64,000 nucleotides of DNA from Takakia lepidozioides (taxonomy: Eukaryota > Plantae > Bryophyta), in contig CM060731.1 in the NCBI GenBank assembly GCA_030704615.1, positions 21,204,001 to 21,268,000 of the forward strand, in the 5' to 3' direction. The number at the start of each line of letters is the position of its first letter. Positions within the stretch are counted from its first letter, which is position 1. The position numbers and the translations under genes were made by a program. The notes beneath the pieces are model-generated. The model saw only the letters and a list, made by a program, of their open reading frames with translations. It had not been told where the DNA came from and did not search any database. Positions 12,175-62,192 of this stretch are shown piece by piece.

Positions 12175-14490
<2,316 letters not shown>

Positions 14491-38519: not shown

Positions 38520-38970
38520 ATGTGCAAATATGGCGCCGAATTTCACGGTAATAGGGTCCGTAACCTGAAAAAACGGCGACGTATTTCGCGGTAATAGGTC
38601 TCTTTGGCGAAAAATGGTGCCGAATTCCGCGGCTATAGGTCCCCTCATGACAGGTAATTCGGCGCCATTTTTCCAGTGCATGTTCGGACTTAGCCAGTTT
38701 TCGGCGCAAAATAGGGAAATTCGGCGCCATTTTTCCAGACACTGTACCAGTGCATGTTGGGACTTAGCCAGTTTTTGGCCCAAAAAAAAGAAATTCGGCG
38801 CCATTTTTCCAGACACGGTACCAGTGCATGTTGGGACTTAGCCAGTTTTCGGCCCAAAAAAGAGAAATTCGGCGCCATTTTCCCAGACACAGGTACCAGT
38901 GCATGTTGGGACTTAGCCAGTTTTCGGCCCCAAAAAGAGAAATTCGGAGCCATTTTTCCAGAAATGGCCC
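38520..38970. repeat. Subterminal tandem array, ~70-bp unit (AAATTCGGCGCCATTTTTCCAG...GGGACTTAGCCAG)
   Basis: About four near-identical units at 38657-38960 plus degenerate ones upstream. Confidence 0.9.
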
Positions 38971-39116
38971 CACAACTGCTTCTGTTGGATCTCAGTTTGA
39001 ATGGAATATTGCCTCATTCCAGGAGTTTTGGGGTGCATTTCATTACACTGCAAAAAAAAGTCTGATACAGCAAAATGCAATTGAAAATATCCATATGGAG
39101 GATTCTCTTTGCCCCA

Positions 39117-39620
39117 TCAATGATTTCTGGAATCCCTAAGGAGGAGTTTGTGCAGTTCGTTCACGCTCAACGCCGGTGCATGAATAAAGTCATCAATAGT
39201 CATGTTCATCCTCAACCTCTTCAGGTAAATGTAATACAGATGCTTGCACGGATAATACTTCGAACCCTTCTTTGCTTCCATCAACGAGAAGTCCGTACAA
39301 TTGCAAGTCGGCTCCACTCCAATTGTAATTGTGTATACATCATCGCGTACAGCCGAGCCGGCCGTTGCCATCCGATACACACGCCCAAGGCCGGGTGGGG
39401 GTACGTCCACGGAGCTCTGAACAGTGCAAGCCATCCCAAGAGCATTGGCAATCCGAGTCTCATTCAACTTGTTGGGAGGGTGTCGTCTCTTCACTCTTCC
39501 GAATCGCATTGTGGGATGTGCAGAATTGTCCAATCCGTCTCTACTGGACCGAGCAGTCTGCAATGGCTGGGTCTGAGGAACCGGAAATGCGTGGGCCGGG
39601 ATGTCTGTGCGTTGCACCAT
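39117..39620 (-). CDS. SWIM zinc-finger region, C-terminal part of a MULE transposase (fragment)
   Basis: YTITIGVEPTCNCTDF...YPCKHLYYIY fits CxC-xn-CxH. Confidence 0.75.
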   Translation of the reverse strand: MVQRTDIPAHAFPVPQTQPLQTARSSRDGLDNSAHPTMRFGRVKRRHPPNKLNETRIANALGMACTVQSSVDVPPPGLGRVYRMATAGSAVRDDVYTITIGVEPTCNCTDFSLMEAKKGSKYYPCKHLYYIYLKRLRMNMTIDDFIHAPALSVNELHKLLLRDSRNH

Positions 39621-39779: not shown

Positions 39780-42700
39780 TGTCGCGCACCTCACTTCGGT
39801 AAGCTCCCCCTCAAGTCATAGTTACTCGCTTTGATGCGCGCGCCTGACTCCCAACCTGGCCGCCGGGCCAACTTGGAGCTTCGGCTGCTCACCGGGGCAT
39901 AACGGTCCCCCTTTGTTCTCCCAAAGAACCCTCCACCGATTTGGAACCAGCGGGAATTCCCTTTGGTAGTGGCAGTCCGGAACAGCTCCCCACTCTTTGG
40001 TCGCTTTCCAGCTCGCTTGCTTACTCACTAGTTTTTGGTCACCAACGGGCTTGCACCGTTCTCGGGGTTACTACTCCCTATATATACTTCTGTAGCTGTC
40101 CGCGGGGGTTTCACAACCAGCCATGCCATTTTATGGCGAACCACCACGAAAACCCTCGACTCCCGGTGATGAGTCGCGGTGAGTCTTGGCCCACTCATCA
40201 CGGCCCTTATGGACCGTGATGAGTCCCAAGACTCCCCACGACTCCCACCACGAGGTCTCCACCCCCATGGTGAGTCCTATGCCACCCCCACTAAGTCCCG
40301 CTAAGCTACCACCACCCTTTGTGGAGCCACCCCCACTGCAACCCGGTGTGCGGGGCTCCAACTAGTGAGCGCCTCCGCCTCTTTGAGTGCCTTGGGCACT
40401 CAAGGGTGCTTCAGCCCCCCGTACCTATCGCTGCCACTGCCCCCACCACAGGGGCAGCCCCTCATGTGTCCCGACCCCCTGCCCTCAAGGCAAAGGGCCG
40501 CGACACACACCCCTACCAACAGGGAGTCAATGTCCTCATCGACTTGTCCATTTTGTAGAAACAAACATCCAAGTTGTGGCGTCCCACATCAAGGAGTTTG
40601 TTTCCGTACCATGGCGTCCCATGGCAAAGAACCAAACCCCACACTTGACTCTACTCTCCACTAGCTAGTTCGACCGACTTCCTCCAAGTCCCGCCCAAGG
40701 GTGGAGCCTCTCCAGCTCCTCCCAGTGCACTCTTCTTGGCCTACTTCAAGGCCAAGGAACGATCCTCCCCGAGGATCGAATCGCCTTACTGCAACAACAT
40801 TGCTTGCGATCGCTCATGATGCCGCTTTTGGCATCACCTTGAGCAAGGGTTCACCTGGAACCCTCTTTGACTAGGAAGATAACCTTGAACCAACCGTGCG
40901 CCCCAATCACTACAATTGGGTCCGCCTTGGAATGCTGGCCTGAGGTACGGGAACACGCCGAAGCCGCACTACGACTTCGTCCCGAGGCTACACGATTATA
41001 GTACGTGAACGGAAGCACGTAGCTTCCACGTTAGCCCGCACTACAAGGCAACCCCCTCGGTAGCGCAGTTATAGTACGCGCACGCGCCAGGTGCGCACTA
41101 GCACGTGAACTCCCAAAGAAGGCGCAAGTTTCCTTGCCCCTTGGATGGGGGTCACCCGATTTCGGCACTACGCAAACACACGATTAAGCCAATTTATCTC
41201 TCCCACTTTTATAAGCTAGCATGCATTCTACACACTAGCCAACCATACCATGCATCACCATTCCAAACAAAATAGGGCGCACAACATTTGGAAGCCATTT
41301 CATTTATAGCACGTTTTGTACAATACAAGTTTTTGCAATCGGATTCCTAAGCTAGCTAAGCCGGGCTAAGCATGCATTTCCTCCCCCACGCTCCAAGGTT
41401 GATGTCCCCATCAACGCTTCTTCCGCTTTTGAGGTCGCCCTTCGAAAGCTGCAACCGCCTCGGATGCGTTTCCCATTTCTGAGGCACGCACCCAAGATGC
41501 CTCCACATGATGATAGCCCTTCCATTTGACGAGATACTCCGTTTCTCGGTTCCTGAACCTCCTCGACTTAAGTATTGCCTCCACCTCGTACTCAGGTTCA
41601 TTTTCATGATCCAACAGCATAGGCGGCGGACGCAACACTTGATGCCGATTCGGACGCGCTTCATCTTTGAAGTAAGGCTTCAAAAGGGATACATGGAATA
41701 CTGGGTGCACCTTACTGTTTGCCGGCAGCTCCAATTCATACACATCATCATTCATAACCTTCTGAATGCGAAAGGGTCCTGCATACGGAGGTACGAACTT
41801 CGGACTCACTTCCGGAGGTAGTCGGAAATTCTTGATGTTCAACCAGACCTCTGTACCTGCCTCAAACTTCACTTCCCTCCGCTTTCGATTCGCCTGCCTT
41901 TCATACCGTTTCCTAGCTTTGGCAATGTTGTACTTTGCGAGCTTCAACAAACGCTCGCGTTCTTCCAGTACCGCCGCTACTGCCGGTTCCTCAACGTCCT
42001 GGGCGGCCCAACTTGTCGGCACCAGAGGTGCTTTTCCATAGACCAATACAAAAGGGGAAACTCCCGTTGCGGAGTGTTCTGTGTTATTATAACAGAACTC
42101 TGCCGCGTCTAAGTGTTCCACCCAGTCTGTTTGGTCTGCCGACACGTAATTCCGCAAGATCTGCTTCACTACGGAATTCACTCTTTCTGTTTGGCCGTCG
42201 GTCGTAGGTCGGAAGGCGGTGCTCATCTTCAGCCTCGTCCTCATCTTCTTCCAAAGTGCCCTCCAAAATTTACTCCTAAACTTTGGATCGCGGTCCGAGA
42301 CAATATCCTTCGGGACTCCATGATGCTTTAAGACATGGGCGAAGTAAAAGTCGCCCTGTCTCCTGCGCCGTTGCCGTCTCCTTGGTGGGGATGAAATGGC
42401 CCATTTTACTGAACCTATCCACCACCACCATGATTGCATCGAATCCTTTTGACAGCGGCATAGCAGTCATGAAATCCATCGAGACGCTTTCCCAAGTCCC
42501 CTCTGGAATCGGCAAGGGTTGTAACAGCCCCGCTTGCTTTTTGTACTCGCTCCGGTTTTGTTGGCATGTGGTGCATGTCTTGACATACTCCTCTACCTCC
42601 TCCCTCAGTTTGGGCCAGAAATACTCTTTCTTCAGGAGTGCCGCAGTGCGTTTGGCTCCGCCGTGGCCCGCAAGCGGGCTATCATGGCATTCTCTCAAGA

Positions 42701-43850
42701 GGCTATCTCTGATCCCTCCCTTTGGCACGTAGAGACGTTTTTGCTTATACCGGAGCAGTCCATTTTGCAAGTGGAACTGCGATTTAACTCCCATCCTCAA
42801 GTCCTGCATCACGGACTTTGCCAGCTCATCCTTCCGGCAAGCCTTCCGGATCTTCCTTTGGAGCGCTGTCTCGCCCCTATACACCAACAGGAGCTGCTGC
42901 TTTCTACTTAAAGCATCAGCCACCACATTGTCCCGTCCCGGTTTGTACTGGATATCCACGTCGAACACCGCCAAAGTATCTTGCCACCTAAGTTGTTTTG
43001 GGGACAACTTGGGCTGCGTGGCAAAATACTTCACTGTGACATTGTCCGTGAACACCTTCACTGGGTTGGAACCAACATAGTGGCGCCAAAGCTCAAGGCA
43101 ATGCACCACCGCCTTCATCTCTTTTTCGTGCGTCGGCCACCGTCGCTCCACTTCATTCAGTTTCTTACTTTCGTAAGCCATTGGACGTCCATCTTGCATA
43201 AGTACACCCCCAATCGCGAAGTCCGACGCATCTGTATGAATCTCAAATGGACGATCGAACTCCGGGATTTTCAAGACTGGAGCTTCCGCCATCCGCTGCT
43301 TCAATTCAGCAAAAGCTTGGCCACAAAATGTGTTCCATACCCAGACTTTGGATTTACACAGAAGGTCCGACAGCGGCCCCGCGATCTTGGCGAAATTTAT
43401 CACATACTTCCGGTAATAGGAGGCGAGTCCTAGGAAGGATCGCACTCCCGGGACCAAAGTCGGAGGCTCCCAGTCCAAGATCGCCCTCACCTTTCTGTCA
43501 TCCATTTTGATCCCATCCTGTGTAATCACATGCCCCAGGAACTCCACTTTTGTGACCCCGAATTCGCACTTTGAAGCTTTGGCATACAGCTTCCCTTCTC
43601 GCAATTTTTGGAACACCCTTTTTAGGTGCTCCAGGTGTTCTTCCTTTGTTTTCGAGTACACCAAGATGTCGTCGACGTACACGATCACAAAGTCATCCAA
43701 CCACTCCTGGAAAAGGCTGTTCATCAGCTTGCTAAATGTCGCTGGTGCATTGGTGAGCCCAAAAGGCATCAGCAAGAACTCATATGAACCATACCTTGTC
43801 CTGCACGCGGTCTTCTCCTCATCTCCTTCTGATAAGTTGTAAGTAATTTT
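39780..43850 (-). mobile_element. 5'-truncated Galadriel-like chromovirus (RT-RNaseH-integrase-chromodomain plus 3' LTR ending at 39780)
   Basis: pol motifs (next feature), purine-rich PPT candidate at 41377-41390 on the minus strand, CA terminus at 39780. Confidence 0.9.
41411..43850 (-). pseudogene. pol: RT (YVDD), RNase H, integrase and chromodomain; frameshift at ~42345
   Basis: [86 protein letters not shown], and EYEVEAIL..EYLVKWKGY..ASW. Confidence 0.95.
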
Positions 43851-43879
43851 ATCAAGGTCCTCCAATGACGTGAGTTCAT

Positions 43880-44290
43880 GAAAGCCAATGTACCGCATCC
43901 ATTCTCAACATATCCAGCTATCAGTGTATTCCATGAGATCCCAACTCGTTTAAGCATTTCATCAAACACATGGCGTGCACCATTCAAGCTCCCGCATTTG
44001 GCATACATGGCAGAAAAGGCAGTCTTCAGATTGACATCTTGCATAATGCTAGCTTTGATGATAACAACATGAAACTCTTTGCCTGATACCTCAGAGAACA
44101 TGTAAATGCCTGGCAGCCTATTTACAAGTTTGAGGCTGGAGACAGGAACATCTGAAACATTGAAACTGTTCATCCAACCACCTGTACTCCAATTCAGCTG
44201 GGTATTGTTCAGAACGGCATTTGGTACATTTCCAGCTTTGATAATGTCGCCATGGACCAGAGCTGCCATATTGCTTGCTTGATCATAGGA
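43880..44290 (-). pseudogene. PLS-class PPR gene fragment abutting the truncated RT
   Basis: GKEFHVVIIKA...[32 protein letters not shown]. Confidence 0.75.
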
Positions 44291-45285
44291 CTCCACGACA
44301 TTTGTAAAAATTCCAGCTTGGACATGGCCAGTCAATTTGGGATTTTGGCCTGTCGAGCGGCTTTTACTCACCCATCCCTTCGCTATCCGTGGTGGAAACT
44401 CCAAGATAGAAGAGTTGGATATCTCTAAGCACTCAGCCCGCTCAGAACAATCAGTCATGACCTACAGCTAGTGAATCATGGTTGCGCTTCCTATTTGTAT
44501 TCCCTCTTGCCTTCATGTTATCAATTTACCTTACTGTGTATACTGAAGCATCAGATTGCTTCAGTATCTATCAAGTTCCAGTCAATCATTCATTCATTCC
44601 ACAGCTTTTTCATGTCTCTCTACACAACATGATTGTATTGATTAAGTATCAGATTAAGATTAATCAGGTATCAGGCCAATGCCATGACGTTCCTAATCTA
44701 CCTTACTGTATGATTCTACAACTTGCATGAATTAAGCCTCAATCAAGTCATCATCTCCTCTTCACTGTTCCGCTCTCCGTTTTGTCTCCTCTTCCCCTGA
44801 CCAAGTCGCGCTCCTCAAGAAGTGATCCCCTTCCTGTTGCCGCCCTGCTTAATCTACCCGCAAGTTGTTCTAACCACCTATTTAACTAACTGTCACCCCT
44901 GAAGTAACACGTTCCCTCTGCAGATGTCGTTCCCACATAGACGTTCCCTGTCAATGATAACCGTCCCCTATGTACGCTGTGACAGGTTGTGCCAAGCTGT
45001 GTCGAGCTGTGTCTGTGCCGAGCTGTGACTGGCTATGTAAAGCTGTGTCAGGCTGTGACTGGCTTGTGCGAAGCTGTGACTGGCTGTGATTGGCTGTGTC
45101 GGGTTGTTTAACCCCCCCCCTAAAGCCTGCGTCTGTCACCCCTAAGGCTTCTGTTGGTCTCAGTCCACCATCCGTAAGTCTGCACAAAAATTAAGGGTAC
45201 CCCACAAAACCCGTAAAAGCGTCTAAGTCTCAAACAGCCCTCTAACATTACCCCTCCCTCTCTCAAAAAGCCGTGTCCTCACGGT

Positions 45286-48200
45286 TTACTGTTTAGGATC
45301 AGCAAACCTTTGTGAGCGAGCACCCTTCTGACGGTGAGAGTCTCGTGAAGGACTCCGTGTGCGAGCTCGAGCCCTGTCACTGGCTGATGGAGGCGATTGA
45401 GCACTACCTGGAAATGTCGGACCCTCCTTTGGTTGATAACGAGGTAACCTCTCACGCATAGGAGATCCCCGTCGTTTCTTCTCTGCCATCTGGAGTGCAT
45501 AATCCTCTGCCGTGTCAAAAGAGTCCTCGGAAGAAGCAGTAGTATCAGAATCATCGTCCCCCCTTAGGTGTTTTAACGGCTGGATTTTAAGTGGCTTCTC
45601 CGGAATCCTGCGTGGCATACAATGTTGGCCCACCATGTTTGGAAGCATAAACTGTACGACTTGCTGTAAGCATGTGCAAGCAAAATGAGTGAACACCCTG
45701 AACTTCTTAGCCGTATATGTGAGAGGTGTGCCAATGACTTTGGAACAATGTAAGTATTTCCAGGCTTCATGTCCCTTATAGAAAACATCATCAGGGCCAA
45801 ATTTCTCTATTGCCAAGTTGTTCCAAGCCAAATTAAACCATGAACGAAGTTGGGAATCCTTCTGCATCATAACTTTTGCATCATACATGTATATATGAGG
45901 TGGCACTAAAGGTAAGACCCAATGATCCCCACTAGAATAACTCAGAAATCGTGATTGCATCTTCTGCTGCTCAACGTGATAACGTGCCATGAAACAAGCA
46001 GCATAGTATACTCCACAGCCCATGACAATACTAGATACCTCCTTGGTCTTAGTATAGATGTGCCCATGTACAACTTGGAAGGCAATTAATTCCTTCAGCA
46101 TGGTGCCTGCCTCAGACCAGTACCTTGCAAAGTGATGATCCTCAATGGGTCGATTAACCTTGGTCCGAGTTGCCACTGGCAACCAAATACGCATGATCTG
46201 GTAGTAATGTGCCAACGACTGCAGAGGACTAAATTCCTTCCAAGCCAAATCCAGCACAATGAGAATTTGGTTGAAGGGCATAATCATAGCCCGACTATAC
46301 TCCCGTGCAGCAGGAGTCCTAGGTGGGTTAAAAGCAGCATCCCCACAAACTTCAGGCTGTGGCTTTGCTATAGTAGCAACAGTGTCAACCACCGGCACAG
46401 CCACCTGCTGTGGAGGCTGTGATATTGCCACCACTGGCCCTTCTACCACTGGCAACTCCTGCACCTCCTGCGAAGAAGACTGAAAAATCAGAGTTCTGGC
46501 TTACAAATAAGTAGCCACCAGCTGCTCCTCAGGAACAAGGACTCTTTTGTCAATGTTCGAGCTCAAGTCATTCACTTGAGTCTACAGCCCTTCTACATCA
46601 TCCTGCAACTCAGCTATTCTACTATAGACATTGTCTATAGTAGTTGTGGCAATGTTCTGGACCTGCAGCCTTCATCTCTCCTTGGGTGAGCTTCCTTGGG
46701 GCTTTGCCTTTTACCGGCCCCTGTGCCAACCATACTTGCATAAGGTGATTATCCACCAAGTCCTGTGTGACACCCCTGAGAGTCTGCTCCTCCTTGAGTC
46801 CGTACAGATCTATCTGCTGCTGTAAAGCCTGCATGCGCTTTGCATAAGGTTCAACCAGGGCCGCATAGGCAGCAGCCAAATTATTGGTTTCCTTCCAAGC
46901 CTTGTTAGCCACAGAGAGTTCATTCTTATGGACCATGAGTGTTTGCTGCATCTCCAGGATGTACCTCTCTTTCTCAACCTCAACCTGACTGTACTGTAGG
47001 AAAGTATTCTCATTGCGACGTATTGTAGCCTTCAAATCAACAATGAGTTTCCCTTGCTCTATTATCTCAGCTTCTACCATCATACATCTCTCTCCTTGTC
47101 TGTTAACTTCCAATGCAGTTTGCTCTAGAGCAGTTGTTAGTGTGGCACATTATATGGTCATTCTCTGATGAACTGCCTCCAACTCTGTATGTAGCACGTT
47201 CACTTCCTGCAACTTGTCCTCATGCTTCACGTGCAATTGGTATAACTGTTGCTTATGTGCTTCATGCAACTTGTCCTGCTTGAGACCTGCTTCAATCAAA
47301 TTTGCCTTAGCCAACTGCAAGGCAGCCTTTGTGTCCTCCAATTCTTTTTGCAACTTGAGGTTGGCCTCTTCATCTACCTTGTTTGCACACTCGGTGGCAA
47401 TTCTAGCCTCAAAAAGCTCCTTCTTGAGTTCCTCCCTCAAAGCTGCCAATTGTGTAGATGGAACATGGGATTTCACATAAGTGCCCAACAAATTGAGTGT
47501 CATGCTTATGGAACTCATAAGCATGGCCTGCTGTGGGTCGTTATGGTGAACTTGTTGCTGTTCTCCCTGATCCTCCATAGTGTGATGATTCACCAACCAT
47601 TCAGGCCATGTTCCCACCAGATCCTCTTCCTAAATGACCTCTTCCTCCACAGGTGCTGCAGTGCTCCTACACTCCACTCCTGGAACCTCCGCCACAGGTT
47701 TGGGTATTACATGTTCAGCAAGGATTTCCCTGGACAGACTCTGCACCTCTAGTACCACTGATCCCCTGACCAAACCAGAGTTTTCATAGAGAAGGTCACC
47801 CTTCTCAATTTCTGCCACGACCTGCTCTGTAGTGGGAATGTCCAACCCTTCTCCTTCCAGAGCAATAGGCTCTGGTACATCAGCATGTTCTAACTGAGGA
47901 ACCTCCAAGTCAATTGGCTGTGATGGCTGTGGTACCGAAGTGACTTCTTCTTCCCTCTCCAAAGGTCGTGCTTCCAGTAATAACAGCCCTCTGTGCTGCT
48001 GTGCCCCATCCTGCACAAAAACTATGGAAACATCATCTTGCGGTTTTCTTGAAGCCAGTGGATCCGCCACTGCAATCATATCCCGCTTTTGTCTCTTAAA
48101 CTGGTGTTGCCTCGCCATTCCACCTTCACTATGTGAAGAGCCATGCTCTTCAATTGCAGTGGTTGCTGCCTCAAACACTCCCATCTCCTTACGTTCTCGC

Positions 48201-48820
48201 GCATCAAGTATGCAAGAGTCAAGAATAATTTGGGCAATGACTGGGCCAGACACAATGATCGGAGACTTAGCAGCAGTGCCCTGCAACCTCTTCATCTCTT
48301 CCACCAGACCATTGTACATTAACTCTACCCAAACTACATCCTCTCCCCTCAAAGCTCTTAATATCTCCTCTGTGAATGATCTGCTCAAATATTGTTGGTT
48401 CTGTTTCATGGCAAACAGAACGTTCAATATTTGGCCAACTTCCTTGAGCCCTGGGTACTCGGCTTTGGTGCAAGCGTAACCTTGAGTCTTAAGGAAACTC
48501 CCTTCTTGGAACAAATTCCCTATCTGCAATCTTGCCCTGTGCTCATCCACATCCACATGACCCGATGGCAAATCGAACAATTGCTGCAAGTACTAGGGAG
48601 TAATTTCTATATCTAGTCCCCTCACCTGGGTAACTCCTGTCTGAGGCTCAAAGTTCTGAATCATATACTGCCGATGATGCAAGGACCAGCCCTTGCGTAG
48701 CAGCCCCTCCAATCGCAACTCCCTCAGCAGCTGCATTGCCTGTGGTGTAGCAATTGTTTGCTTCTACAAAATCGTGGCGCTCTTCACCCTGATATCCCCC
48801 ATTCCCCTCACTCTCTTCAT
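45286..48820 (-). pseudogene. Extra ORF (~1100 aa before disruption) of unknown function, with a central coiled coil, between integrase and 3' LTR
   Basis: Consecutive same-strand ORFs 48589-47630, 47617-47150, 47113-46622 and 46464-45286, separated by stops or frameshifts. Confidence 0.65.
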
Positions 48821-49604
48821 TCTAGACAAACAAAAAGGCCTTGTTTGAAACAGCTGTAGGAAAGCTTGCAGGGCACATAGCATAAAGGTATGGTTGGCAC
48901 AGAATGGAACGGGTAAGTGCGTGTAAGCCCATGGGGCTTGCAAATATCGAGTGAGAGAGAATGTACTCTCAACCTGTCCATCCTTGCGCCACTGCGTGAG
49001 AAGTAAAGCTAATGTGTAATCCGTAATTTCCACCATAGCTACAAAGCTATAGCTTTGATTGCCCCTCCTGTCGAGACGCTGGTTATTCAGAGCCACCCCG
49101 ACTCCTGCGCTCATAACCCTGCTAATTTCTTGTTCTTGTTTCTTGGAGGAAACCACCTGTATGTAATTCCCGCTCGTGATTGGCTGTTGCCTCCTTGGGT
49201 AACTTCCTAATTTAACTCCCCTCAGTGGCCTTTCCCCCCTGGAACGTCCACTAGGACACACGTGTGGCAAAAGTCCCCCTTTTCTGTACTCGTAAAGGGT
49301 TCCGTTACCCTTGCCCTGAATGCATTAATGGGCCCACAAATAGTTTGGGTTGATGTACCGGGTAGGTACTTTGACGGCCCAATTTGTCTTCTTGCATGAT
49401 GACACCCGCTTTTGCAATATATGCACTGCGGTGTGCTTCGCCCTGGCAACCACGTGTTTGTTTCTAGACCTGCCCCCGTCTTCCCCTATCCGTGTGGCAC
49501 ACTCTCCGAGTTTGACTTCCAAGCTGTCTTTTCACCCACCGGCCACTTTTCGGACGTTAACCCACGTCCACCTGTCACTGACCCTATGGACTGTGTAACC
49601 CGCG

Positions 49605-49810
49605 TGGGTTGTGTTGGGCTGTGACAGGCTGTGTCAAACTGTGACGAGCTGTGATAGGCTGTGTGACACTGTGGGTGGCTGCGATCGACTGCGTGGCACT
49701 GTGGTGGGCTGTGATAGGCTGTGTGATGTTGTAATGGGCTGTGATAAGCTGTGTGATGCTGTGATGGGTTGTGATAAGCTGTGTGATGTTGTGGTGGGTT
49801 GTGATAACTG
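49605..49810. repeat. ~30-bp tandem repeat (GCTGTGATAGGCTGTGTGATGTTGT..), related to 44976-45100
   Basis: About seven units by inspection. Confidence 0.85.
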
Positions 49811-50099
49811 TGCGGACACCCATGTTCTTCGCTCAGGCCATACACATTCGGTTTTACGACAAGTGCTTCATGCTCCGTTGGTATTACCGGTGCAGCCCGT
49901 GACTGTTTCTGTGTTTCAACATGCAAATCATGCTGCAATGGTTTGTCATGGATACCACTATATCCCTTCAACTTATTGGCATTGACTCTTCCCAGCATCT
50001 CTTTGTTAATGGTTTGTAACATGGCGGTGTTGTTATCATACATCTTTTGTATGACATAAGGTCATTTCCATGGAGATTTAAGCTTAGAAGCTTTGAGTT

Positions 50100-52800
50100 G
50101 CACCCAAGCCAGTTCTAAGGGAACAATGGTGGCCGGGGGCGAGGTGGAGCAGCCCAGAGAGGACGAGGTGGCCAGGCACGAGGTGCAGGCCAAGGGCAAG
50201 CTCAACATGGCCAAGGACACGGAGGTCAAGGTGGTGACCAAGGCATGGCCAACCGGCTTCAGCAGCTAGAGCAGAGGCTCACTGCCATGACCACAGCTCA
50301 GGTGGTACTGGCTCCAAGGCCGGATGGTCCACCTCCTGCTCCTGAGAGAGGAGACATGGGAGGCATGTGATTCATGTGCGGGGCAGGACTACCACTAGTG
50401 AGGGGAGCCACTACCACTACCACTGTGGGTGGGGCACCACTACCACTATGTGCTGGGCAGCACTACCACTACCACTATGTGCGGGGCAGGACTACCACTA
50501 GTGCAAGTGGAGTCAGCTGCGGTAGTGACTCGAGGAGCAGCACGAGTTCTTGAGCCACGGGGTGCGGAGGTGGAGTTGGATCCACAACGTGGGGAGGCAA
50601 GCCGTCAGGCCAGGCTTCCTCAGTCATTCACATTGGCGGAGACAGTGTCGACGCCATCCATGGCACCTAGTTCTCGCCCGACAGTTACCGAGGCGGAGGT
50701 TACTATGCCATTGGGGAGAGCTCCACGGGCAGCATCACTACCTAGTGTTGCCAAAGCTACGGCAGCTAGTGTGCTGCTGGGGGCGGCCACAGCTCTGTGC
50801 CAGGCTCCGTTGTTCTCGGCTACCATGATTGCGACGCCGGGGGTAAGACCAACTGAGGTGTTCACGCTGGTAGCTACACTCTGTGAGAGTGGGGAGGTTA
50901 TTTCATCTTCTGCGGTGATAGTGGGAACCTGGAGGTGTAGTGCCGGAGGGATCCTCGGTGTGAGGGTCAAGACTGCCATGGCGGCGTCATGGCAAGCTGC
51001 AGCTGCCAGGTTGATGGAGCTGTCAGTTAGGCCAGCCATTGAGCGCGCCATGGTGACTTCTGAAGTTGTCATGTTAGACAACTAGGATGGCATTTTCTCT
51101 TTGAGTGGACCGGCAGACAAGAGGTACCGGCCACTACAGGTCTTGATGGACTTGGGAGCTCAGCCATTGATGCTGGGTAGAGTTGCTATTGCAGGCTTGG
51201 GCCTCAAGGAGGCGGACATGGAGCCATGCCTTTTCCAGATACAGACATCTCTGGGACGATTAGAGCAGGCTTGGGGCATGACACGGCGTGAGTTGGCTAT
51301 CCGACTATAGCCGGATCATCCTACAGATGGCTCAGTGATGAGAGCCAAGGCCATTGTGACAGACGCGGTCGCGTACGATGTCCTTGTTGGTGGGGCAGTG
51401 TTGTATCCCATGGGCTTCACCCTGGATTTTTGGGAGGAGTCAGCTTCCTATAGGCCTGGATGGCAGTCAAGGGAGGGCCGGCGTGTGCAGCTCCCTGTGA
51501 CGTTCATAGGAGGAGTTGCGATTGCCCAGCGAGGCAAAATGCCAACACTGGCAGCATTCACAGCTGCAGTGATTTGGCTTGGAGAATTGTTGGATGGCAA
51601 CACTCATTTAGAGGATGTGTCACCTCCGGGAGAGCAAGATGACATGTATGGTATGGCGGAGTTGCCTGCCATAGTTGCTCAGACTCCATTGTGGGGCTCG
51701 AGCAAGGATTTGCAGCGGATTACTGATTATCGTGTGCAACAAGCCTGGGTAGAGGCTTTTGTACCATCAAGAGAGGAGGACAGAGCGGGGATTGCACCAG
51801 GACCACCTCAGTTGTCTCCATTGGACACCACACTGATCGTGTGGTAGTGTCCGAATGAAGGCATTTGCCTTCTGGACTTGTTTGGCGGGATCAGCACCGG
51901 GTTGGCTGCTGTTCTACAAGCAGGTGTACGAGTACGATATTACTTGTATGTGGAGAGGGATGAGACCGCACGACGCGTCTCACTTCATCATGTTGCTCAG
52001 TTGGTGCAGCAGTACCCTGAGTTGTCGTCGGTGTCTGCGGTGCGTGGATATCAGCAGGCCTTGCCAGCAGACATTTCTTTGCTGGGGGCGCAAGATTTGG
52101 AACGGGTTGGCTCCATTGATTTAGTAGTGGCAGGTTGGCCCTGCCAAGGGCATTCATCAGCCGGGCATGACAATGGGTTGCGAGACTCGAGGTCGGGTCT
52201 GTTTTGGGAGCTGGTGCGGGTTTTGCGCCACTTACAGCTTCATCAAGCTGTATCTCCAGCATACATCTTGGAGAATGTGCCACTGATGGGCAATTCTCGG
52301 GCCAGGGTGATGGCCAGTGTGCACCAAGTCCGGTCGTGGCTTGGATCAGTAGTGTTGTTGGATGCAGCTGCAGTGGGGTCACGGGCTCATCGTCCACGGT
52401 TATGGTGGACTAACTTGATGCCACCCGCACTGCTTAAGCGTGCCTTTGATGGGTGCAGCGGCCAGTACACCTCACAGTGGATAGCATTTTGGACACAGAG
52501 AGGCAGTCTCAGCATGTGAGACACGATGACCGTTCGCCTTTGGCAGTGGTCAACAAGGTGGGTCAACCACGAGCAGCACTACCTACACTACTCAGCTTCC
52601 CAGGATCGCATGCTTTCCAGGATAGCGGACCTGGCCTCCTGTGGGATGCTCAGTTGCAACAGTTAGTGGAGCCTAATGCCGACGAGCGAGAGCGGGCTAT
52701 GGGTTTTTCCACTGGGACCACGGCGATGCCTTCCCTTCTGAGGCATCACGTCGTCAGGTGTTGGGGCAAGCAATGGATCTAAATTGCTTGACCTGGATGG
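50100..52800 (+). mobile_element. Retrotransposon polyprotein remnant: gag tail, aspartic protease, C5 DNA methyltransferase; cut off by the MULE insertion
   Basis: RGG-rich gag-like tail, AAVVTRG linker, protease VLMD(L)GAQ...YDVLVGG, then the DNMT in the same frame apart from TAG stops. Confidence 0.7.
51848..52800 (+). pseudogene. C5 cytosine DNA methyltransferase domain embedded in a retrotransposon ORF
   Basis: Motif I LLDLFGGI, II YVERD, IV DLVVAGWPCQ, RSGLFWE, VI YILENV, VIII AHRPRLWWTN, ERERAMGF, X LGQAMD; frameshifts at ~52450 and ~52735. Confidence 0.9.
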
Positions 52801-52988
52801 GGGCTGCTATTTCATGAGCGGCATGAGCATGAGCGGAAAAAAAAAAAAGCATGAGCGGGCCGAATTGTGTCCACGGAAATAGGGTCATGAGGACTCGTCA
52901 TAGCAATGAAATGCAATATTTTATTGCAAATTTGGTGGCAAGCCACGTCTATACAAGTGTGTCCTTACTGTCATAGCAGGAATAGGAA

Positions 52989-55900
52989 CTACTCTCCTAC
53001 ACCTTCCGAGGAACTTGGCCCTCCTTCTTCCTTATCCCCCTCATCCCCCCCATCCTCCGAGCTCTGTGATGCATCGGTTGCAGTATGCCTCTCAAAAATG
53101 TCGTCCTCTCCTTGGGGGACTATCCACCTCACCTCCTGGGAATCTTCTGCCTCTTCTCCCCCACTTTCCTCAGCAAAATCCAAGACAAATCTACGAGCCC
53201 GATGGGCTCTAATAGCTGCTGCCTCCTCCCTCATCTTCATTTTCTTGAGGCTTGCCTCGTCTAAAATCTGCTGTACACGACTAGGTTTGGAACACCTCCT
53301 AATGGACACCAAAGCAAGTTGGGCAGCATAAGTAGGAAGGATGTAGTCCCTTTCTGGACTAGGCATGAAATCCCCCCTGGCAAAAAAAGGCACGTTCCTC
53401 CTGCCTATGAACTCCAGTGTAGACGTCCCTCCTGCCGTACTTGGCATCCTACAGTAAGAACAAATCCACTTCAAGAATGTCAATACCAGCAGAAGCAGAA
53501 AGGGTTTTCAATGAAATAAGAGGGCGAAGGGAGGTGCCTCACGAAATCTGGAGGCAACTTACAATGCGACCACTCACTCGTACACCGGGGGCTCCTCGGC
53601 CTCGATCCCAACTTGTTCCTCCCCCTGCTCCTTCTCGGATTTTTCCTCATCCTCCAAGGATGCCTCTTCCTCTTTCGGCAGACGTTCAACCGCTGCAAGT
53701 TCCGAGTTGTGGAGGGCAGTATCTGGCTCGAAGGCGAACACATACCGGTCGGACAACGTCCCTGCCCACATTGACGCACCTGAGGAACAAAGCGGGCGGT
53801 TAATAGCTTGCGGCATGCAATTGCAATCGGGCCAGGGGACAAACTGAGCACGTGAAGGCTTACCCGTGCCGCATGTGAGGTCCAGAATCCGCCCTTGGAC
53901 ATCCGAGCACGTCTCCTCATATTGTGGTGTATCTAAACAAGATCCCGGAGTTGATCCCTCTTTTGTTGGATGTGCAGACATTGGTGTTTGAGGCATATTG
54001 CTTTGTGAAGAGAGGGTCTACGTTCAAATTCCGCAACGACGGTCGTCTTGTTGATGCCGCTGTGGACCCTATTACCTACAATGTCCTCTACAACTATGTG
54101 CCCCACTCCAGTATGCCGAAGGACACAAAGACAGGCAAACCGTGGCGGTACAGCCGGACCCGGAGCCCTGCTTTCATCCAAACCCTCATGGCTGCCCACA
54201 ATAGATTGATAACTTACACTTTGGCCCTCTGTTTGCAACCCCTGTGTATTGATGCAGAACCATTTTCTGAGGAGGACCGGGGTGACATTTTTTGGTGTCC
54301 ACCTTGCCACCGCATTCTCTGTGGTCTTCCCTCTTGTGGCAAGGACAACCACACATCCACCGTCATCCAGAACATCCCCGCCAGCCCAAACCCGGCTTTC
54401 CAGTAGTCCTTAGTAAACCTGTTCCAGGTGGGCACACCATCCAGGCCCTCCAGCAGCTCCCCATCTAGAATGTCAAGGAGAATCATGTCGCAAGCTCTCT
54501 CCACCTCAACCCCCCCCCCCCGAGTGCTCTTGCAATCCGTGCTCACAGCCGTGAAGAATTCCATCATGGCTTCAAAACCAGGGGTGTCTTTAGGCTCTGT
54601 AGCCCTCTTCTTGGCATTCCCCTTCTGCTCCGCCAGAGACTTGCTGTGTGCCACCTTCTTCGCCCTGGCAGCCAGAGCGTCAAGGAAGCTCTCATTGACG
54701 CATTGGATGATGGTTGGAGGTTCTAGCTTTGGCCTGTGCGTAAATGTCACCTCCGAATACCGCCGTGTAGGCTCGCCCTCAAATGCCAACTTCTTGGCAG
54801 AGCCAGTCCCACTCCGAACTGACTTGGGAACCCGGACGACCGGTGACTGGGTAGAAGCAACAGCAGTCGCAGGACCTTGAACAAAGTCGCCGTCCGAGTC
54901 ACTCTCTTGGGTCCCCTCCTGCGCCTCCTCCGATGCCCCGATGGTTTTCTGTTTTTTGGGTGTTACTGCACTCACCTGTTTCCTTGTCCTTTTCCTTTGG
55001 CCTTTACTCTTCTCATTCAATTTCTCCTGAATTCCTGCCTGAGCAAGCTCTGCCGCTTTCCTGGAGTTCGCAAGCGCTTTTGCCTCTTTTGCACCCAGCG
55101 GAGGCAGTGGAGTCCGGTTTCGTCGGGCCTCAACATCCAGCTTCAATTGAAACTCGGATGGGTCGAGCGAGCCGGGCGGAAGGTCCACATACCAAGGGCA
55201 ATCACGCAAATGTTCCAGATGCCACTCCTTCACAATATCGTCAGTGTACATGGAGTCAGCCCCAGGGTTCCTCCATGCCAGGAAGAATGGTGGCTCGAAA
55301 GACAGATGACATTTCTCCAAAAGGGAGAACTTGCAGTACCTGCATTCATGAAAAACACAATGAGGTCCCTGAACTGCAAATTCGGCACCATTTTCCCAGG
55401 TTGGGGCGGATCTGAGTGGGCCTAGAAATGGAAAAATGGCGCCGAATTTCGGTTTTCGGTGACTGCCACCCTAGGGACTTAGCCATCTTGGGAGCCCTGA
55501 ACTGAAAATTCGGCGCCATTTTTCCCGGTTTGGCCCGAAGATGGCTAAGTCCCAGAACGGCAATAGGGCCCAGAACTGGAAAAAATGGCGCCGAATTTCC
55601 AGTTCAGGGCCAGCCACCCTAGGGACTTAGCCATTTTCGGAGCCCTGACTGGAAATTCGGCGCCATTTTCCCAGGTCCGGCCCGAAAATGGCTAAGTCCC
55701 ACAAGGGCAATAGGGCCCAGAACTGGAAAAATGGCGCCGAATTTCCAGTTCAGGGCCAGCCACCCTAGGGACTTATCCATTTTCAGAGCCCTGACTGGAA
55801 ATTCGGCGCCATTTTCCCAGGTCCGGCCCGAAAATGGCTAAGTCCCAGAACGGCAATAGGGCCCAGAACTGGAAAAATGGCGCCGAATTTCCAGTTCAGG

Positions 55901-58778
55901 ACCAGCCACCCTAGGGACTTAGCCATTTTCGGAGCCCTGACTGGAAATTCGACGCCATTTTCACAGGTCCGGCCCGAAAATGGCTAAGTCCCATATGGCC
56001 TTGACCTGGAAAAATGGCGCCGAATTTCCAGTTCAGGGCCAGCCACCCTAGGGACTTAGCCATTTTCGGAGCCCTGACTGGAAATTCGGCGCCATTTTCA
56101 CAGGTCCGGCCCGAAAATGGCTAAGTCCCATATGGCCTTGACCTGGAAAAATGGCGCCGAATTTCCAGTTCAGGGCCAGCCACCCTAGGGACTTAGCCAT
56201 TTTCGGAGCCCTGATCTGGAAATTCGGCGAAAAATGCAAGGACTGAAACGAAGGCATCGCGTATGTACCTGTACAGAAGGCGCATTGCTGCTTTGTCCGC
56301 GTTCGGCTGGTCGGTGAACTCGTGGCTCCGGCGGGCATGTGGTATCTCCCGAAAGAATAGGTCGGTTTTGTAGAGCAGAAAGTACCTCGTCACATAGTCA
56401 CGTAGGCTCTCTGCTGCAGGAGAAATCTCCATCTTGAACGGATGTGCTTGTGTGTCCAGCTGCTCTTGCGCATTCGTCGTCACCTGTGGAGATTCTCCAT
56501 CAGATCGCATTGCTGAAAAAATACAATGAATCCACCCCCTACAAGAGTAGAAGCGCCAAACGAATCGTGGGGAAGTACCTGAAACCACCATGTTATGCAG
56601 TTCATCCACATGTTGAATGTGGGGTCAGACAATTTGTCCGGTTTGGGGAAGCTCCACATGTCCCTTGTACTTTGGGAACCATTCCAGATTTGGAGCCACC
56701 GGGTCTGTCCAACCACCCAACATATTCGTAAGCGCCAAACACCACAAAAACGAGTTGTTGCCACCACAATTTGCACCAAGGGCGGGATCAGCTATGGCCA
56801 CGTACTTTACCATCTGCGACTTGTACTTTATGCGGGCCCTCACCTCCGCAGCTTTGAGATACGATTCAAGTATCGGGAGGGTTAGATTCTTCTCCTCTGA
56901 CTCCATGTAGAACCTCCGCGCATGTGCCAAATCCTGCTGAATTTTCGTCTGTCAAGAATGCGCACATAAGATTAGAGATCCTGCTCAACACTTTTTCTTC
57001 TATTGGGGGAGGAGAGACAGATTAGCTCAACAAAACAGTTAGGAGCTTTACTCGAAATATGTAGTCCACCATGGCGTCCATGCTCAGCCTATACCAGGTT
57101 CTGTCTGCCTTTGCCTCCGACTTGCGCAGGAGGTTGGCACTGAGCGAATTGGCAAACTCTTGCACCCCCTGCTTCCCGACATCCTTCACTTGGAAGAGCA
57201 TATGGGACAAGTTGGTGGCAATGAAGGCATTCTCAGTCACCCTGCAATGCCACATTTCCATCAAACAATTCTGAAATGGGAATTTACAACAAATATGAGG
57301 ATTCGCAATGAAATGACTTACAATCGGATGGGTCCAAAAGCAAGAGGCGTTGTAACTTACCAGTTGATGTCCGCCATTGCAGCTTTGAGAAGACTGCGAT
57401 CTTTGGGCCCCGCAACCTTCAGCACAACACACTCCACGACGAAATGCCAATCGAGGTCGTTGGGGTGGGCTTCGGCTATGTGCTCCATCCATGCCAGGAG
57501 GCGATGATTGCCGTCCCACACGTAAAACATCTTACCAGACAAATGCTGGAAAAGAGGATCAGTAGCAATCGTTCTCTCGAACTCCTCATTTTGCCTTTGC
57601 CAATGGGGACCCCATTTGTCCACCTCATCGGAAGTGTGGGCACGGGTCGCTCCGTGGTCGTTCTCAATGGAAACGTAAAACGCGGCAGACCCCATTCGAT
57701 ATCCATCCCGGAAAGAGAATTTCAGCTTGTCGATATCGCCTGGGAGGGCAGGTCTCACCACCTGCAATGACACCAAGCGGCAAAGGGGAATCCGAAGCTT
57801 GGCCGGGTACACCATGCCCCCCAGCACCCTGCCAATGTTGCTGTGGGTTGCCTCCAACATCTTGGCAGCGACCAACTTCATATCCGCCTCCGGCATGACG
57901 TCTGCTGCAGAGGGGTTCTCCGGCAGCCCACCAGGACCGCCAAATCCAGCCTGTATGCTGTGGGTTTGGAGCCTGGGGATGTTCGGGAGGATGTCATCCT
58001 GGTCAGAAAGCTCCCTGTCGTCCTCCTCAACATGGTCAGCCACTGGCGAAACCACCTCGAGCACTCTCCCCGTCTCTACTGCCCTCTCCCCGGCTTCACC
58101 TCGAACTTGCACAATCCGTGCTCTTTCTGGTGTTCTTTCCTCTCCTCCACTCTCCACCGTATGGGTAATTGCAGGGGCTGCTCTTGCCCGCGATGGTCTA
58201 ACCAGTGTGTTACTGCCTCTTTGTGGTGTCTTGGAGGGATCCACCGTCTCTGTGCGTCCCTTGCTTACATTGGCATCTATCATTTGGGCACCCCTAGCCT
58301 CTTCAGTGGCCTTTTCTCTTTCCTCCTGGCTAGCCTTCTGTCTCGCCTGTTCTTTTGCCCTCTCTTTTGCCCCCTCACGGGCTTTCTGTTTCTTATTAGG
58401 GCTAGCAGCAAGGGAGCCCGGATGGATGACCACCTTTGATTGAGGCGAACTGACACCCTCGTGCGCACTGCTCACTCCCCCCTCCGCAGCCCGTGACGGC
58501 TCTCTCGCCGGGGATTGCATGTGCTTAGCTTTCTTCTTCTTCTTTGCATGGGCGGGCCCTACTGCATGTGCATCAACAACCTCCATTGTTGGATCTGCTA
58601 TCCTCACGTCCTCACGCCCTTCACCTGCCATGCCGCCTGCACCAACCTCCCCAATGCCTATTCTGTCATACTCTCGCTGCAGGTCCTCCCGTCCACCAAC
58701 AAAAGGTTGAAGTTTGCCCTCTCGCCCCAAGTTGGGCGATTCAAACATGCAATGAGTTGGAGTGGTCGATGATACCAC
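52989..58778 (-). pseudogene. Multi-exon cargo gene: ParB/Srx-like N-terminal domain plus C-terminal beta-class N6A/N4C methyltransferase-like domain (disrupted; 5' exon may extend to ATG 59387)
   Basis: KLRIPLCRL..VVRP..DIDKL..FYVWDGNHRLLAW. GT-AG introns at 57360-57242, 57051-56949, 56268-55340 and 53864-~53781. MTase-like motifs DMILLDILDG, LDDGGCVVVL, KPWR..RSPAFIQTLM, GRILDLTCGTGASMWAGTLSDRYVFAFEPD. Confidence 0.7.
55375..56232. repeat. Intronic tandem array, six units of ~137-148 bp, each containing inverted pairs of GAAATTCGGCGCCATTTT and GGGACTTAGCCATTTT
   Basis: GCCACCCTAGGG recurs at ~55465, 55613, 55759, 55905, 56042 and 56179. Confidence 0.95.
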
Positions 58779-59689
58779 CAGCGTGCCGGGCTCGTCGTCA
58801 CTCTGTCATTCCCAAAATCGTCAGAACCAACATCGGTGCCAAAACCAGCATCGCAACGAGCAGCGCAACCACCATAGCAACAATCGTGGAACAACAATGA
58901 AAACAAAACAAGTTTAGGAAGTATGGAGTGCCATGGAACAACAATGAAAACAAATCCAACCAATGCCTAAGAATGACATGCACAAGCAGCCTTCTCCAGA
59001 GCTGCCGGCTTTGCACACGCATTGCAAACTATCTAAGGTTCACTCAACCGGTAATATGAAACACGATGAACAAATGATCAGGAATTCCATAAGACGGGAA
59101 AACAGGGTGAAATGTTTTGAAGGCACTTCATCTTCTCAGCTCAGCATGGATTTCCTTAATTTTTAACCACTCAGACCTTGATCATTCTTCGCAACATCTG
59201 CTGCTTTTGCGATGCAGCCATATGCTTCCAGCGATGCCAGGATGAAGATGCAAAAACAAAGCGAAACAACAAAGCGAAAGCGAACAAAGCGAAAGCAGAA
59301 GTGGCTTGCCTGAGAGTACTCGGCTTCAGTTGGCGCGGGTTGTGAGCAAGAGACTGGAATCTCCTGCTGGAGCTTGAGTTTGGCCATGCGAGATTGGCCG
59401 TCGTCCGTAGTACAAAGCTTTCAACTTCCGCCGCGGTCTGGATGTGAGGTCTCTCTCAGGAGAGCCATGCCCTTCAGGCGGCATAAGTCCCAGCCAAAAT
59501 GGAAAAAGATCTCAGTTTTTTGGGGTACATGCCTCGAATAGAAGTTAATCCAAGATTAGCATCATTTAGGGTACGTATCGAGGAAGCCATGTGTCGCCAG
59601 CCCGAATAAAAACGGACGGCGGTGGACATTTAATGCCCAACTACGCAATTAAATGTCGGATGAAGCCCTCCCTGTTGGATGAAATATGA

Positions 59690-60700
59690 CGCAACTCGGC
59701 CCGGAATTTCCAACGTAGAGGTAATTCAGAGCGCAGCAGAATAAAATTCCGGAGCCGGATTTCCATCCGCCAGGTACGGCGGCGCGCAAAAATTCCATCA
59801 TGCAGGTAAATCGGAGCGCAGCAGGATGGAAATTCAGCGCCGAATTTCCATCCTGCCAGGTAGGGCGGCGCGCGAAATTTCCGTCATGCAGGTAATTCGG
59901 AGCCGGATGGATGGAAATCCGGCGCCAGATTTCCATCCTGCCAGGTAGGGCGGCGCGCGAAATTTTCGTCACGCAGGTAATTCGGAACCGGATTTCCATC
60001 CTGCCAGGTAGGGCGGTGCGCGAAATTTCCGCCACGCAGGTAATTCAGAGCCAGATGGATGGAAATCCGGCGCCGGATTTCCATCCTGCCAGGTAGGGCG
60101 GCACGCGAAATTTCCGCCACGCAGGTAATTCGGAGACGGATGGATGGAAATCCGGCGCCGGATTTCCATCCGCCAGGTTGGTCGGAGAGCGGATGGATGG
60201 AAATTCAGTGCCGGATTTCCATCCTGCCAGGTAGGGCGGCGCGCGAATTTTCCGTCACGCAGCTAATTCGGAGCCGGATGGATGGAAATCCGACGCCGGA
60301 TTTCCATCCTGCCAGGTAGGGTGGCGCGCGAAATTTCCGCAAGGCAGGTAATTCGGAGACGGATGGATGGAAATCCGGCGCTGGATTTCCATCCGCCAGG
60401 TTGGTCGGAGAGCGGATGGATGGAAATTCGGCGCCAGATTTCCATCCTGCCAGGTAGGGCGGCGCACGAAATTTCCGCCACGCAGGTAATTCGGAGCGGA
60501 TGGATGGAAATCCGGCAGGTAGGGCGGCGCGCAAAATTTCCGTCATGCAGGTAATTTGGAGCGGATCAGGATGGAAATTCGGCGCCGAATTTCCATCCTG
60601 CAAGTAATTTGAAGCCCGGATGGATGGAAATTTGGCGCCGAATTTCCATTCGCCAGGTAAGTCGAAGCGCCGAATTACCTTCCTGCAGGTAATTCTGAGC
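59690..60700. repeat. Array of palindromes GGATGGAAAT(T/C)CGGCGCCG(A/G)ATTTCCATCC with CCAGGTAGGGCGGCGCGCGAAATTT spacers
   Basis: Perfect 34-bp palindrome at 60567-60600 and roughly a dozen variants. Confidence 0.95.
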
Positions 60701-60789
60701 GTGGCGCTTCGTTTTTCGGAGAAAAACAAACTAAACTGTTAGTTTTGTGGCTGAAGTCCACTTTTAGACACGTTTTTCATGGAATCCTT

Positions 60790-61900
60790 GACTGCTAGAG
60801 GGAAATTCGAACGGCCTCGGACGGAAAATCGGCGCCGTTTTTCCATCTTGGGAGGTTTTTATATCGTCCAGTTTTGGGCCTCACCACTCGACCGGACTTC
60901 CTTTGAGGGGGCCCGGATGGAAATTCGACGGCGAATTTCCATCCGGGGGATGGTCTCTGCCGAACAGGTGCCGGTCTCTCCGCCCGAGGCAACTTCGTCC
61001 GGGCGTCCTCTGTTGGATATTCGGTGCCGAATTTCCGTCCAGGGGTTGAAATGTGACAGCCAGGTGCCGGCCTCTCCCCCCTCCCCGACTGCATCCGAAC
61101 CGCCCCGCACGGAAATTCGGCGCCGTTATTCTATCCTGAGAGGTTTTTATATCGTCCAGTTTTGGGCCTCACCACCCGACCGGACTTCCTTTGAGGGTCC
61201 CAGATGGAAATTCGGCGCCGAATTTCCATCCGGGGGATGGTCTCTGTCGGACAGGTGCCGTCCTCTCCACCCGAGGCGACTTCGTCCGGGCGTCCCCTGT
61301 TGGATATTCGGTGCCGAATTTCCGTCCGGGGGTTGAAATGTGACGGCCTCTCCCCCCTCCCCGACTGCATCCGAACGGCCCCGGATGGACATTCGGCGCC
61401 GTTTTCCCATCTGGGGAGGTTTTTATGTCAGCCAGTTTTCGGCCTGCCCCCTCGACACGACTTCATTTGCGGGGGCCCGGATGGAAATTCGGCCCCGAAT
61501 CTCCATCCAAGGGATGCTCTCTGTGGAACACGCGTCGGCCTCTACGCCCGAGGCGACTTCATCCGGGCTTCCCCTGTTGGATATTCGGTGCCGAATTTCC
61601 GTCCGGGGTTGTAATGTGAGGGCCAGGTGGCGGCCTTTCCCCCGAGCCGACTACATCCGAACGGCCTCGGATGGAAATTCGGCGCTGTTTTTCCATCCGG
61701 GGAGGTTTTTATGTCGGCCAGTTTTCGGCCTGACCCCCCGACACGACTTCCTTTGGGGGGATCCGAATTGAAATTCGGCGCTGAATTTCCATCCGGGGGT
61801 TGTTCTCTGTCGGACAGGTTCCGGCCTCTCTGCCCGAGGCGACTTCATACGTGCGGCAACTGCTGGATATTCGGTGCCGAATTTTCATCCGGGGGTAGTA
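60790..61900. repeat. ~285-bp tandem units (about four), each with three copies of the ATTCGG(C/T)GCCG motif
   Basis: GAGGTTTTTAT recurs at ~60852, 61140, 61416 and 61702. Confidence 0.9.
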
Positions 61901-62192
61901 ATGTGACGGCACGGTGCCGGCTTCTCCCCTTCAGCCGACATCATCCGGACGGCCCCCCACTTTCTGATTGCATACCGTTGGCAGTTATTGCGCAAAGACC
62001 AGGGGCCGCATTCCTGAGACAAGGTTCATTAACACTTTGACTGTGGATTTTTGAGATAGTTGGCTCCCTGGATTTGGATCAGGCTTCGTCGCTCGGACAA
62101 ATCGGCACCGCATTCCTTCCCATCGCTGCATCCCCCTTCTACCAGGGAGCTTGCCCGCACGCCATCCTGGGAGTCTTTTGTGCACATCTCCC

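Follow-up and report, generated by a model that had tools for sequence, protein, structure and literature searches.

Genomic setting of the fragment

The window (the whole 64,000-nucleotide stretch of DNA analysed here) contains host genes, several transposable elements and, at 50086–52799, a decayed Ty3/Gypsy fragment in which tblastn with relatives recovered a collinear Gag tail, spacer, protease and whole set of C5 cytosine methyltransferase (DNMT) motifs. The main features are:

171–2243 (−), 7609–8723 (+) and 31495–32769 (−), three host genes, two of them F-box beta-propeller genes (profile matches for the F-box pair) and one lipase-like
26300–28928 (+), F-box/kelch gene
41414–43904 (−), chromovirus-type Gypsy pol with RT, RNaseH, integrase and chromodomain in long open frames
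50086–50448 (+), Gag end: last zinc-knuckle residues, RG-rich tail and short coiled segment (tblastn with Marchantia ORF1 proteins, 42–45% identity, E 4e-12 to 1e-10)
50456–51085 (+), Gag–protease spacer (collinear with P0009, P0296 and P0303; TAG stop at 51083)
51086–51505 (+), retropepsin-like protease with a degenerate triad (relatives P0040–P0042 match Asp_protease_2; TAG stop at 51308)
51506–51847 (+), protease–DNMT linker (collinear with relatives; TAG stop at 51845)
51848–52450 (+), DNMT3-type catalytic domain, motifs I–VIII (PF00145; best solved matches DNMT3A; PCQ at 52133–52147, ENV at 52265–52279)
52453–52737 (+), target-recognition region and motif IX-like stretch, past a frame change (55–74% identity to land-plant-type relatives)
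52737–52799 (+), motif X, past the second DNMT frame change, and 3′ break (86–95% identity over 20–21 residues to land-plant-type relatives)
63159–63863, MULE-like ORF (Atlas 0.87, no Pfam match)

Three GT..AG introns of the F-box/kelch gene are spliced out in two RNA-type runs whose species label is that of the best-matching DNA run. The last exon of the gene shares 77% identity with Sphagnum proteins and 62% with a conifer protein, in a search whose length limit left out many full-length proteins. Judged from this one gene, the DNA of the window can be assigned firmly to a land plant and is likely to come from a moss. What we take to be a lipase-like gene has no Pfam match.

The chromovirus-type pol abuts a piece of PPR pseudogene at 43772–44461. 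RT matches at 42897–43886 and 13813–14483, with 27–48% identity, stem from other Gypsy elements, one of which bears a chromodomain; as the preliminary description of this DNA had noted, no RT of the DNMT family is visible in the window (tblastn with relatives). A piggyBac-like transposase (14685–16468, +; PF13843, E 4e-46) lies beside a Gypsy remnant between inverted repeats at 11543–11742 and 14479–14667. Directly upstream of the fragment, head-to-head with it, is a minus-strand ORF (49486–50061) without a Pfam match that we take, by eye, to resemble a Gypsy integrase C terminus; its minus-strand sequel comprises a 10-bp tandem array (49600–49819) and further ORFs (45286–48592).

The preliminary description had the element cut short by an interrupting MULE, which the sequence supports in part. 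The 3′ break, at 52798/52799, is real, and the fragment is cut at its 5′ end too, where homology starts at 50086: 35 contigs of DNA run X1 abandon the window sequence at 52798 and 24 at 50094. The MULE-like ORF, however, lies 10 kb off and is a lead only; neither it nor the ORFs directly flanking the fragment gave a Pfam match. The sequence that starts behind the break recurs at 38293, and 52800–64000 and 38293–39620 share a repeat family; together they possibly represent a large family of Mutator-like elements in which long tandem arrays occur (55434–56292 and 59743–61954). The 38–39 kb region has a weak SWIM finger match. The repeat-rich stretch between the element and the MULE-like ORF also holds a 482-residue ORF (57357–58805, −) without a Pfam match, the first part of which carries a DGNHR motif that presumably recalls ParB/Srx-like domains.

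Structure and decay of the window copy

The preliminary description had reported a complete DNMT motif set, and this is borne out by a Pfam DNA_methylase match (PF00145) at 51848–52516 (E 6.9e-14) and by motifs in canonical order from 51872 to 52784. The stretches that we take to be motifs I, II, III, IV (PCQ), VI (ENV), VIII, IX-like and X start at 51872, 51947, 52070, 52133, 52265, 52385, 52684 and 52761, respectively. The protease itself had no match in a Pfam search and was recognized through collinear alignment with relatives, three of which (P0040–P0042) reach the Asp_protease_2 cut-off or come near it; the Klebsormidium protein P0073 aligns to 51131–51505. The protease-like site at 51143–51163 reads DLG in the window, whereas 35 of the 38 fetched proteins that have the site read DSG or DTG.

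The claim that all of this stood in one reading frame broken by TAG stops and two frameshifts holds in part. Spacer, protease and motifs I–VIII share a single frame (50456–52450) with the three TAG stops listed above, and two frame changes fall within the DNMT, near 52450 and 52737; the Gag tail, however, is read in another frame, which contains two further stops (50116 and 50368), and a third frame change falls near 50450, within a short repeat of the ACCACT type (D17, 50398–50500). With five stops, three frame changes and both ends cut, the window copy is a dead fragment, a fossil of its family.

Relatives and abundance

A search with the DNMT among longer proteins gave 109 matches, the top ones 65–77% identical. 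Those that bear names comprise 19 from Marchantia polymorpha, 2 from Calypogeia fissa, 2 from Sphagnum, 1 from Klebsormidium nitens and, far down, 2 from Chloroflexota; cluster look-ups added S. jensenii, S. troendelagicum and five Marchantia models (1278–1281 aa; chromosomes 4, 5 and V). No vascular-plant protein is named among the 109 matches or among the best 120 of 235, and most of these matches are nameless, so that absence is not implied. Among representatives clustered at 50% identity, 543 proteins matched with E values of up to 1e-10. The family is thus present in liverworts and peat mosses besides the likely moss of the window. The Gypsy ORFs of Marchantia, C. fissa and Sphagnum (for example, Mp_4g09160 and Mp_Vg00370) are approximately 50% identical to the fragment over 670 residues and 69–73% over the DNMT, and carry automatic names only; the five Marchantia models look uninterrupted, whereas the window copy is broken. 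Our literature search found no paper on these ORFs.

In DNA run X1, 36,546 contigs map to window positions 49000–54000, and the summed contig depth of the element is 170,000 to 1.2 million, compared with 60 for the F-box/kelch gene. Summed contig depth is not a copy number, but it indicates that the DNMT element family is very abundant. No RNA run was listed as containing the stretch, and RNA run X12 contained only diverged pieces of the element; neither result has a bearing on expression.

Whole-element features were taken from the best 80 of 494 confirmed related metagenome stretches. The stop, RT and repeats described below are thus known from fetched relatives; the window copy ends upstream of them, and the host's own family is not represented. 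Only 48 of the 80 fetched loci keep both PCQ and ENV, a retention expected because the copies have decayed. Five loci (L073, L074, L076, L077 and L080) form a divergent subfamily (approximately 41% identity) in which motif patterns matched no usual-form PCQ or ENV.

Element architecture and a conserved stop

Among loci with enough flank, a protease lies upstream of the DNMT in 52 of 59 and an RT no more than 1.5 kb downstream in 44 of 54; integrase and then a PHD finger follow in the longer fetched loci, giving the order Gag–protease–DNMT–stop–RT–RNaseH–integrase–PHD. The enzyme is therefore linked to RT in the relatives, and the case of an unlinked DNMT, which the preliminary description had named as a reason to abandon its reading, does not apply. 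In 21 loci, motif X and the RT motif share one frame, and in 19 of these a TAG or TAA followed by CAA-CCC stands 99 codons past motif X, the six bases behind the stop being invariant; of the remaining two, L004 has TAG-CAA-CCA at 113 and L070 stops at 136–137. The named ORF1 proteins of Marchantia and Calypogeia terminate 94–99 residues past motif X. Taken together, these two observations imply that the land-plant Gag–protease–DNMT ORF closes before RT. The position of the DNMT after the protease in a polyprotein, as first described, is thereby confirmed and refined: the land-plant enzyme forms the end of the Gag–protease ORF, with a conserved in-frame stop behind it, and lies outside the RT ORF.

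Two architectures exist in the family at large. The DNMT stands between protease and RT in Marchantia (P0012 and P0021), Klebsormidium (P0073) and an unnamed protein (P0143), and between RNaseH and integrase in the others. Quick trees separate the two, one of 57 DNMT rows with supports of 92 and 91 and another of 28 RT–RNaseH rows with a support of 100. The window DNMT falls inside an 18-row clade with liverwort and moss proteins (support 99). Both trees are without a reliable root, the RT outgroup being a long branch that lands inside one clade, and they contain bacterial-type matches in place of host DNMT3, DRM or named Dcm rows.

In one unnamed protein of 1,417 residues (P0076), a single chain combines a Dam adenine methyltransferase with a related C5 DNMT and a weak RT; the protein may represent a dual-methylase retroelement with a DNMT3-related domain.

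Terminal repeats

Self-comparison of the fetched loci revealed two repeat segments, A and B, arranged as A–coding–B–A–B in L039, L060, L074 and L076, the last two of which belong to the divergent subfamily. Seven loci have both ends, two of the form A–coding–B–A–B and five of the form A–coding–B, and all seven begin with TGTC and finish with CA. Four-base-pair target duplications flank five of the seven exactly and all seven with at most one mismatch, against 0 and 4 of 42 cross pairs, respectively. Most of the 22 loci listed carry a polypurine run ahead of the first B, and the first B is followed by A in 5 of 19 loci and by flank in 14. Two bases stand between the 3′ end and the 5′ end at the B|A joint; the sequence at the A2|B2 joint is that of the A terminus followed by the beginning of B. 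Read by eye, no primer-binding site was evident behind A1. These features would fit an LTR of the form B–A, with one- and two-LTR circles opened by a DDE integrase at the internal B|A site; the A–coding–B forms could also stem from assembly collapse or B–B recombination. A tyrosine-recombinase (DIRS) element was considered and rejected, as the relatives carry the H2C2 and rve domains of a DDE integrase and have 4-bp target duplications.

Enzyme type and selection

Among solved structures, the window DNMT is matched best by DNMT3A, DNMT3B and DNMT3C over residues 6–190 (38 bits for DNMT3A); the matches to DRM2 and M.HhaI are shorter and score lower. A plant DRM was rejected because the motifs are not circularly rearranged—they run from I to X, not with VI–X before I–V—and because the DRM2 match covers residues 4–129 only. 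The stop-free domain of L006, modelled on a 68-row alignment at a pLDDT of 95.9, superposes on DNMT3B and DNMT3A with Z scores of 29.4–29.6 and an rmsd of 2.5–2.6 over 273 residues (Z 24 for M.HhaI). The predicted fold is DNMT3A/B-like, and activity does not follow from a shared fold. Across the 68 sequences, the catalytic C, E and R hardly vary. The preliminary description of a retrotransposon-borne C5 methyltransferase in a land plant thus stands, with RT linked to it in relatives and the enzyme being of DNMT3 type, neither DRM nor bacterial. That the element is a bryophyte Ty3/Gypsy retrotransposon with a DNMT3-type enzyme we regard as almost certain.

Between subfamilies, the dN/dS ratio of the DNMT is approximately 0.2 (up to 0.22; dS 1.4; first 200 codons), and between the window and its nearest loci it is 0.04–0.11 with dS near saturation; comparison values are 0.27–0.29 for the protease and 0.04 for RT. 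These ratios show purifying selection on the DNMT between subfamilies. Sister copies give DNMT ratios of 0.7–1.4, near the value of 1 expected of copies once they have inserted. The CpG ratio is 0.51 for the element and 0.87 and 1.02 for two further Gypsy elements of the window, but in fetched loci it is 0.54–0.59 (0.27 in L004) against 0.34–0.50, so that the element is not singled out.

Comparison with known elements

The closest described system is KnitGypsy-Dnmt3 of Klebsormidium nitens (de Mendoza et al. 2018, PMC5890265), for which a bioRxiv manuscript (10.64898/2026.05.21.726589) uses the name streptophyte Gypsy-DNMT3. As far as the available text of these sources goes, the Klebsormidium element shares with the bryophyte family the Ty3/Gypsy domains, an intronless, non-rearranged DNMT3-type domain between protease and RT (as in P0073), DIRS-like split repeats (here in L039, L060, L074 and L076) and purifying selection on the DNMT. 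It differs in several respects. The bryophyte host is a land plant, and the thousands-fold read depth suggests far more copies; the DNMT of KnitGypsy-Dnmt3 and P0073 lies in the Pol ORF with RT, whereas that of the land-plant form lies in the Gag–protease ORF with a stop between (19 of 21 fetched loci); its RT–RNaseH is 46% identical to that of Marchantia; and a PHD finger stands behind the integrase in the fetched relatives. Polyproteins of Scenedesmus sp. PABB004 (P0131, named 'pol', and P0468) have the order RT–RNaseH–DNMT–integrase–PHD, with a DNMT approximately 40–47% identical that sits after RNaseH; these chlorophyte-type elements share the PHD finger behind the integrase and form a separate clade in both quick trees. 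SymbioDIRS-Dnmt3 and SymbioLINE-Dnmt (PMC5890265) and the Euglena EpiLTRs (10.64898/2026.05.21.726589) are likewise retrotransposons with C5 methyltransferases. According to the descriptions available to us, by which we set them apart, they belong to other element classes or DNMT clades and are independent captures.

In the literature that we searched, which covered few subscription papers and not Repbase, no land-plant report of the family was found. The words 'moss', 'fern' and 'embryophyte' do not occur in the available text of PMC5890265, and its three text supplements have no Marchantia or Sphagnum; the survey does include Physcomitrella. The lack of Marchantia and Sphagnum entries in this 2018 survey may explain why the family was missed. 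The available text of the bioRxiv manuscript names 'streptophytes (Gypsy-DNMT3)' and does not contain moss, Marchantia or bryophyte; that of PMC12344493 has 'previously reported in streptophytes', citing the 2018 paper; and the family is not described in the portions at hand of PMC12344493, PMC11982613, PMC6317226 and PMC9477723. Klebsormidium-type Gypsy-DNMT3 elements were thus known already; what appears to be new, on the sequences compared here, is the abundance in bryophytes and the placement of the enzyme on the Gag ORF.

Proposed mechanism and alternatives

We propose that the DNMT methylates the element's own new cDNA inside the particle, a reading to which we give a probability of roughly 0.6. 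The conserved stop would be leaky, with rare read-through yielding RT and integrase, so that the DNMT would be made at the level of Gag and many copies of it packaged in the particle. Freed by the protease, the enzyme would methylate the cDNA, probably at CG, and the methylated new copy would resemble host-silenced DNA or be shielded from host nucleases. The cDNA would then circularize and the DDE integrase open the circle at the internal B|A palindrome, a one-LTR circle giving A–coding–B and a two-LTR circle A–coding–B–A–B. Assays in yeast bear on the enzymatic step: two retrotransposon DNMT3s of Symbiodinium carried out de novo CG methylation, whereas the enzyme of Klebsormidium, the nearest assayed relative, gave no methylation, a result that the authors call inconclusive (PMC5890265, in the text available). 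The complete chain—a moss and liverwort Gypsy element that loads an active DNMT3 at capsid level through a leaky stop, methylates circular cDNA and integrates at a site inside a permuted LTR—we put forward tentatively, as possible rather than probable.

As to origin, horizontal transfer among bryophytes, in place of descent with their hosts from a streptophyte alga, is a possibility that we rate as distinctly the lesser. The Marchantia RT–RNaseH is 86% identical to that of locus L002, whose sister L006 groups with Sphagnum proteins, and the DNMT tree places liverwort and Sphagnum copies nearer to each other than either is to the moss copy of the window. Against this, the Klebsormidium element sits with the other DNMT-before-RT forms on one side of the main split (92 for DNMT, 100 for RT; unrooted quick trees), and the one metagenome set contains several deep sublineages side by side, a pattern consistent with paralogous lineages of old age.

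The DNMT might instead serve another job: it might act in trans, targeting the chromatin of the host or competing elements, or bind or methylate element RNA in the particle. RNA methylation and host benefit are options raised by PMC5890265 in its available text, which also reports the lack of DNA activity of the Klebsormidium enzyme in yeast; placement on the Gag ORF would suit a structural or RNA role, and the CpG content does not single the element out. We consider this rather unlikely, as both the fold and the best matches are those of DNMT3, not DNMT2, the catalytic residues are nearly invariant and selection on the DNMT is maintained in a mobile lineage.

It is less likely still that the stop is genuine and that RT and integrase come from a spliced or separately started transcript, an arrangement in which the DNMT would still be made at the level of Gag. 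One leaky stop signal has the consensus UAG-CAR-YYA, and the CAA-CCC context of the 19 loci resembles it but is one base off. Even so, the frame is preserved across the stop in 21 loci, the six following bases are invariant in 19, and P0073 and P0143 continue from DNMT into RT as one protein, all of which speaks for read-through.

Two further possibilities named in the preliminary description are highly improbable. A processed pseudogene of a host DNMT3 or DRM that landed among transposons would account for DNMT3A/B as best solved matches, but 2.7 kb of the window are collinear with the Gag tail, protease and DNMT of retrotransposon polyproteins, which refutes it, identity to the closest of these proteins is 65–77% against the 38 bits for DNMT3A, the motif order is not rearranged as in DRM and read depth is very high; as the domain is not stand-alone, a host DNMT3 gene or retrocopy was rejected likewise, the tree being one without host DNMT3 rows. 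Algal contamination or a chimeric join might be suspected, given that algal members exist (Klebsormidium and Scenedesmus) and that none of the contigs listed bridges both junctions, but the closest named relatives are liverwort and moss proteins, and the same DNA run contains the window's own spliced, single-copy F-box/kelch gene (depth 60; identity 77% with Sphagnum, 62% with a conifer) and the element (summed depth more than 170,000).

Implications

An opinion piece (PMC6338049) holds, in the text available, that land plants 'such as tracheophytes' lack transposon-borne DNA methylases, and builds on that loss in its argument; contrary to this stated absence, the family is abundant in bryophytes. 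Bryophyte annotations are affected in a practical way, since DNMT-bearing ORFs can inflate their DNMT gene counts. What use a retrotransposon makes of its own DNMT is posed as an open question in PMC5890265, as far as its text was available, and the role of the DNMT can be put to the test in Marchantia, a genetic model whose ORFs seem uninterrupted. If the proposed mechanism is true, the family would be a self-methylating, circle-integrating LTR retrotransposon of land plants that adds CG methylation without host enzymes.
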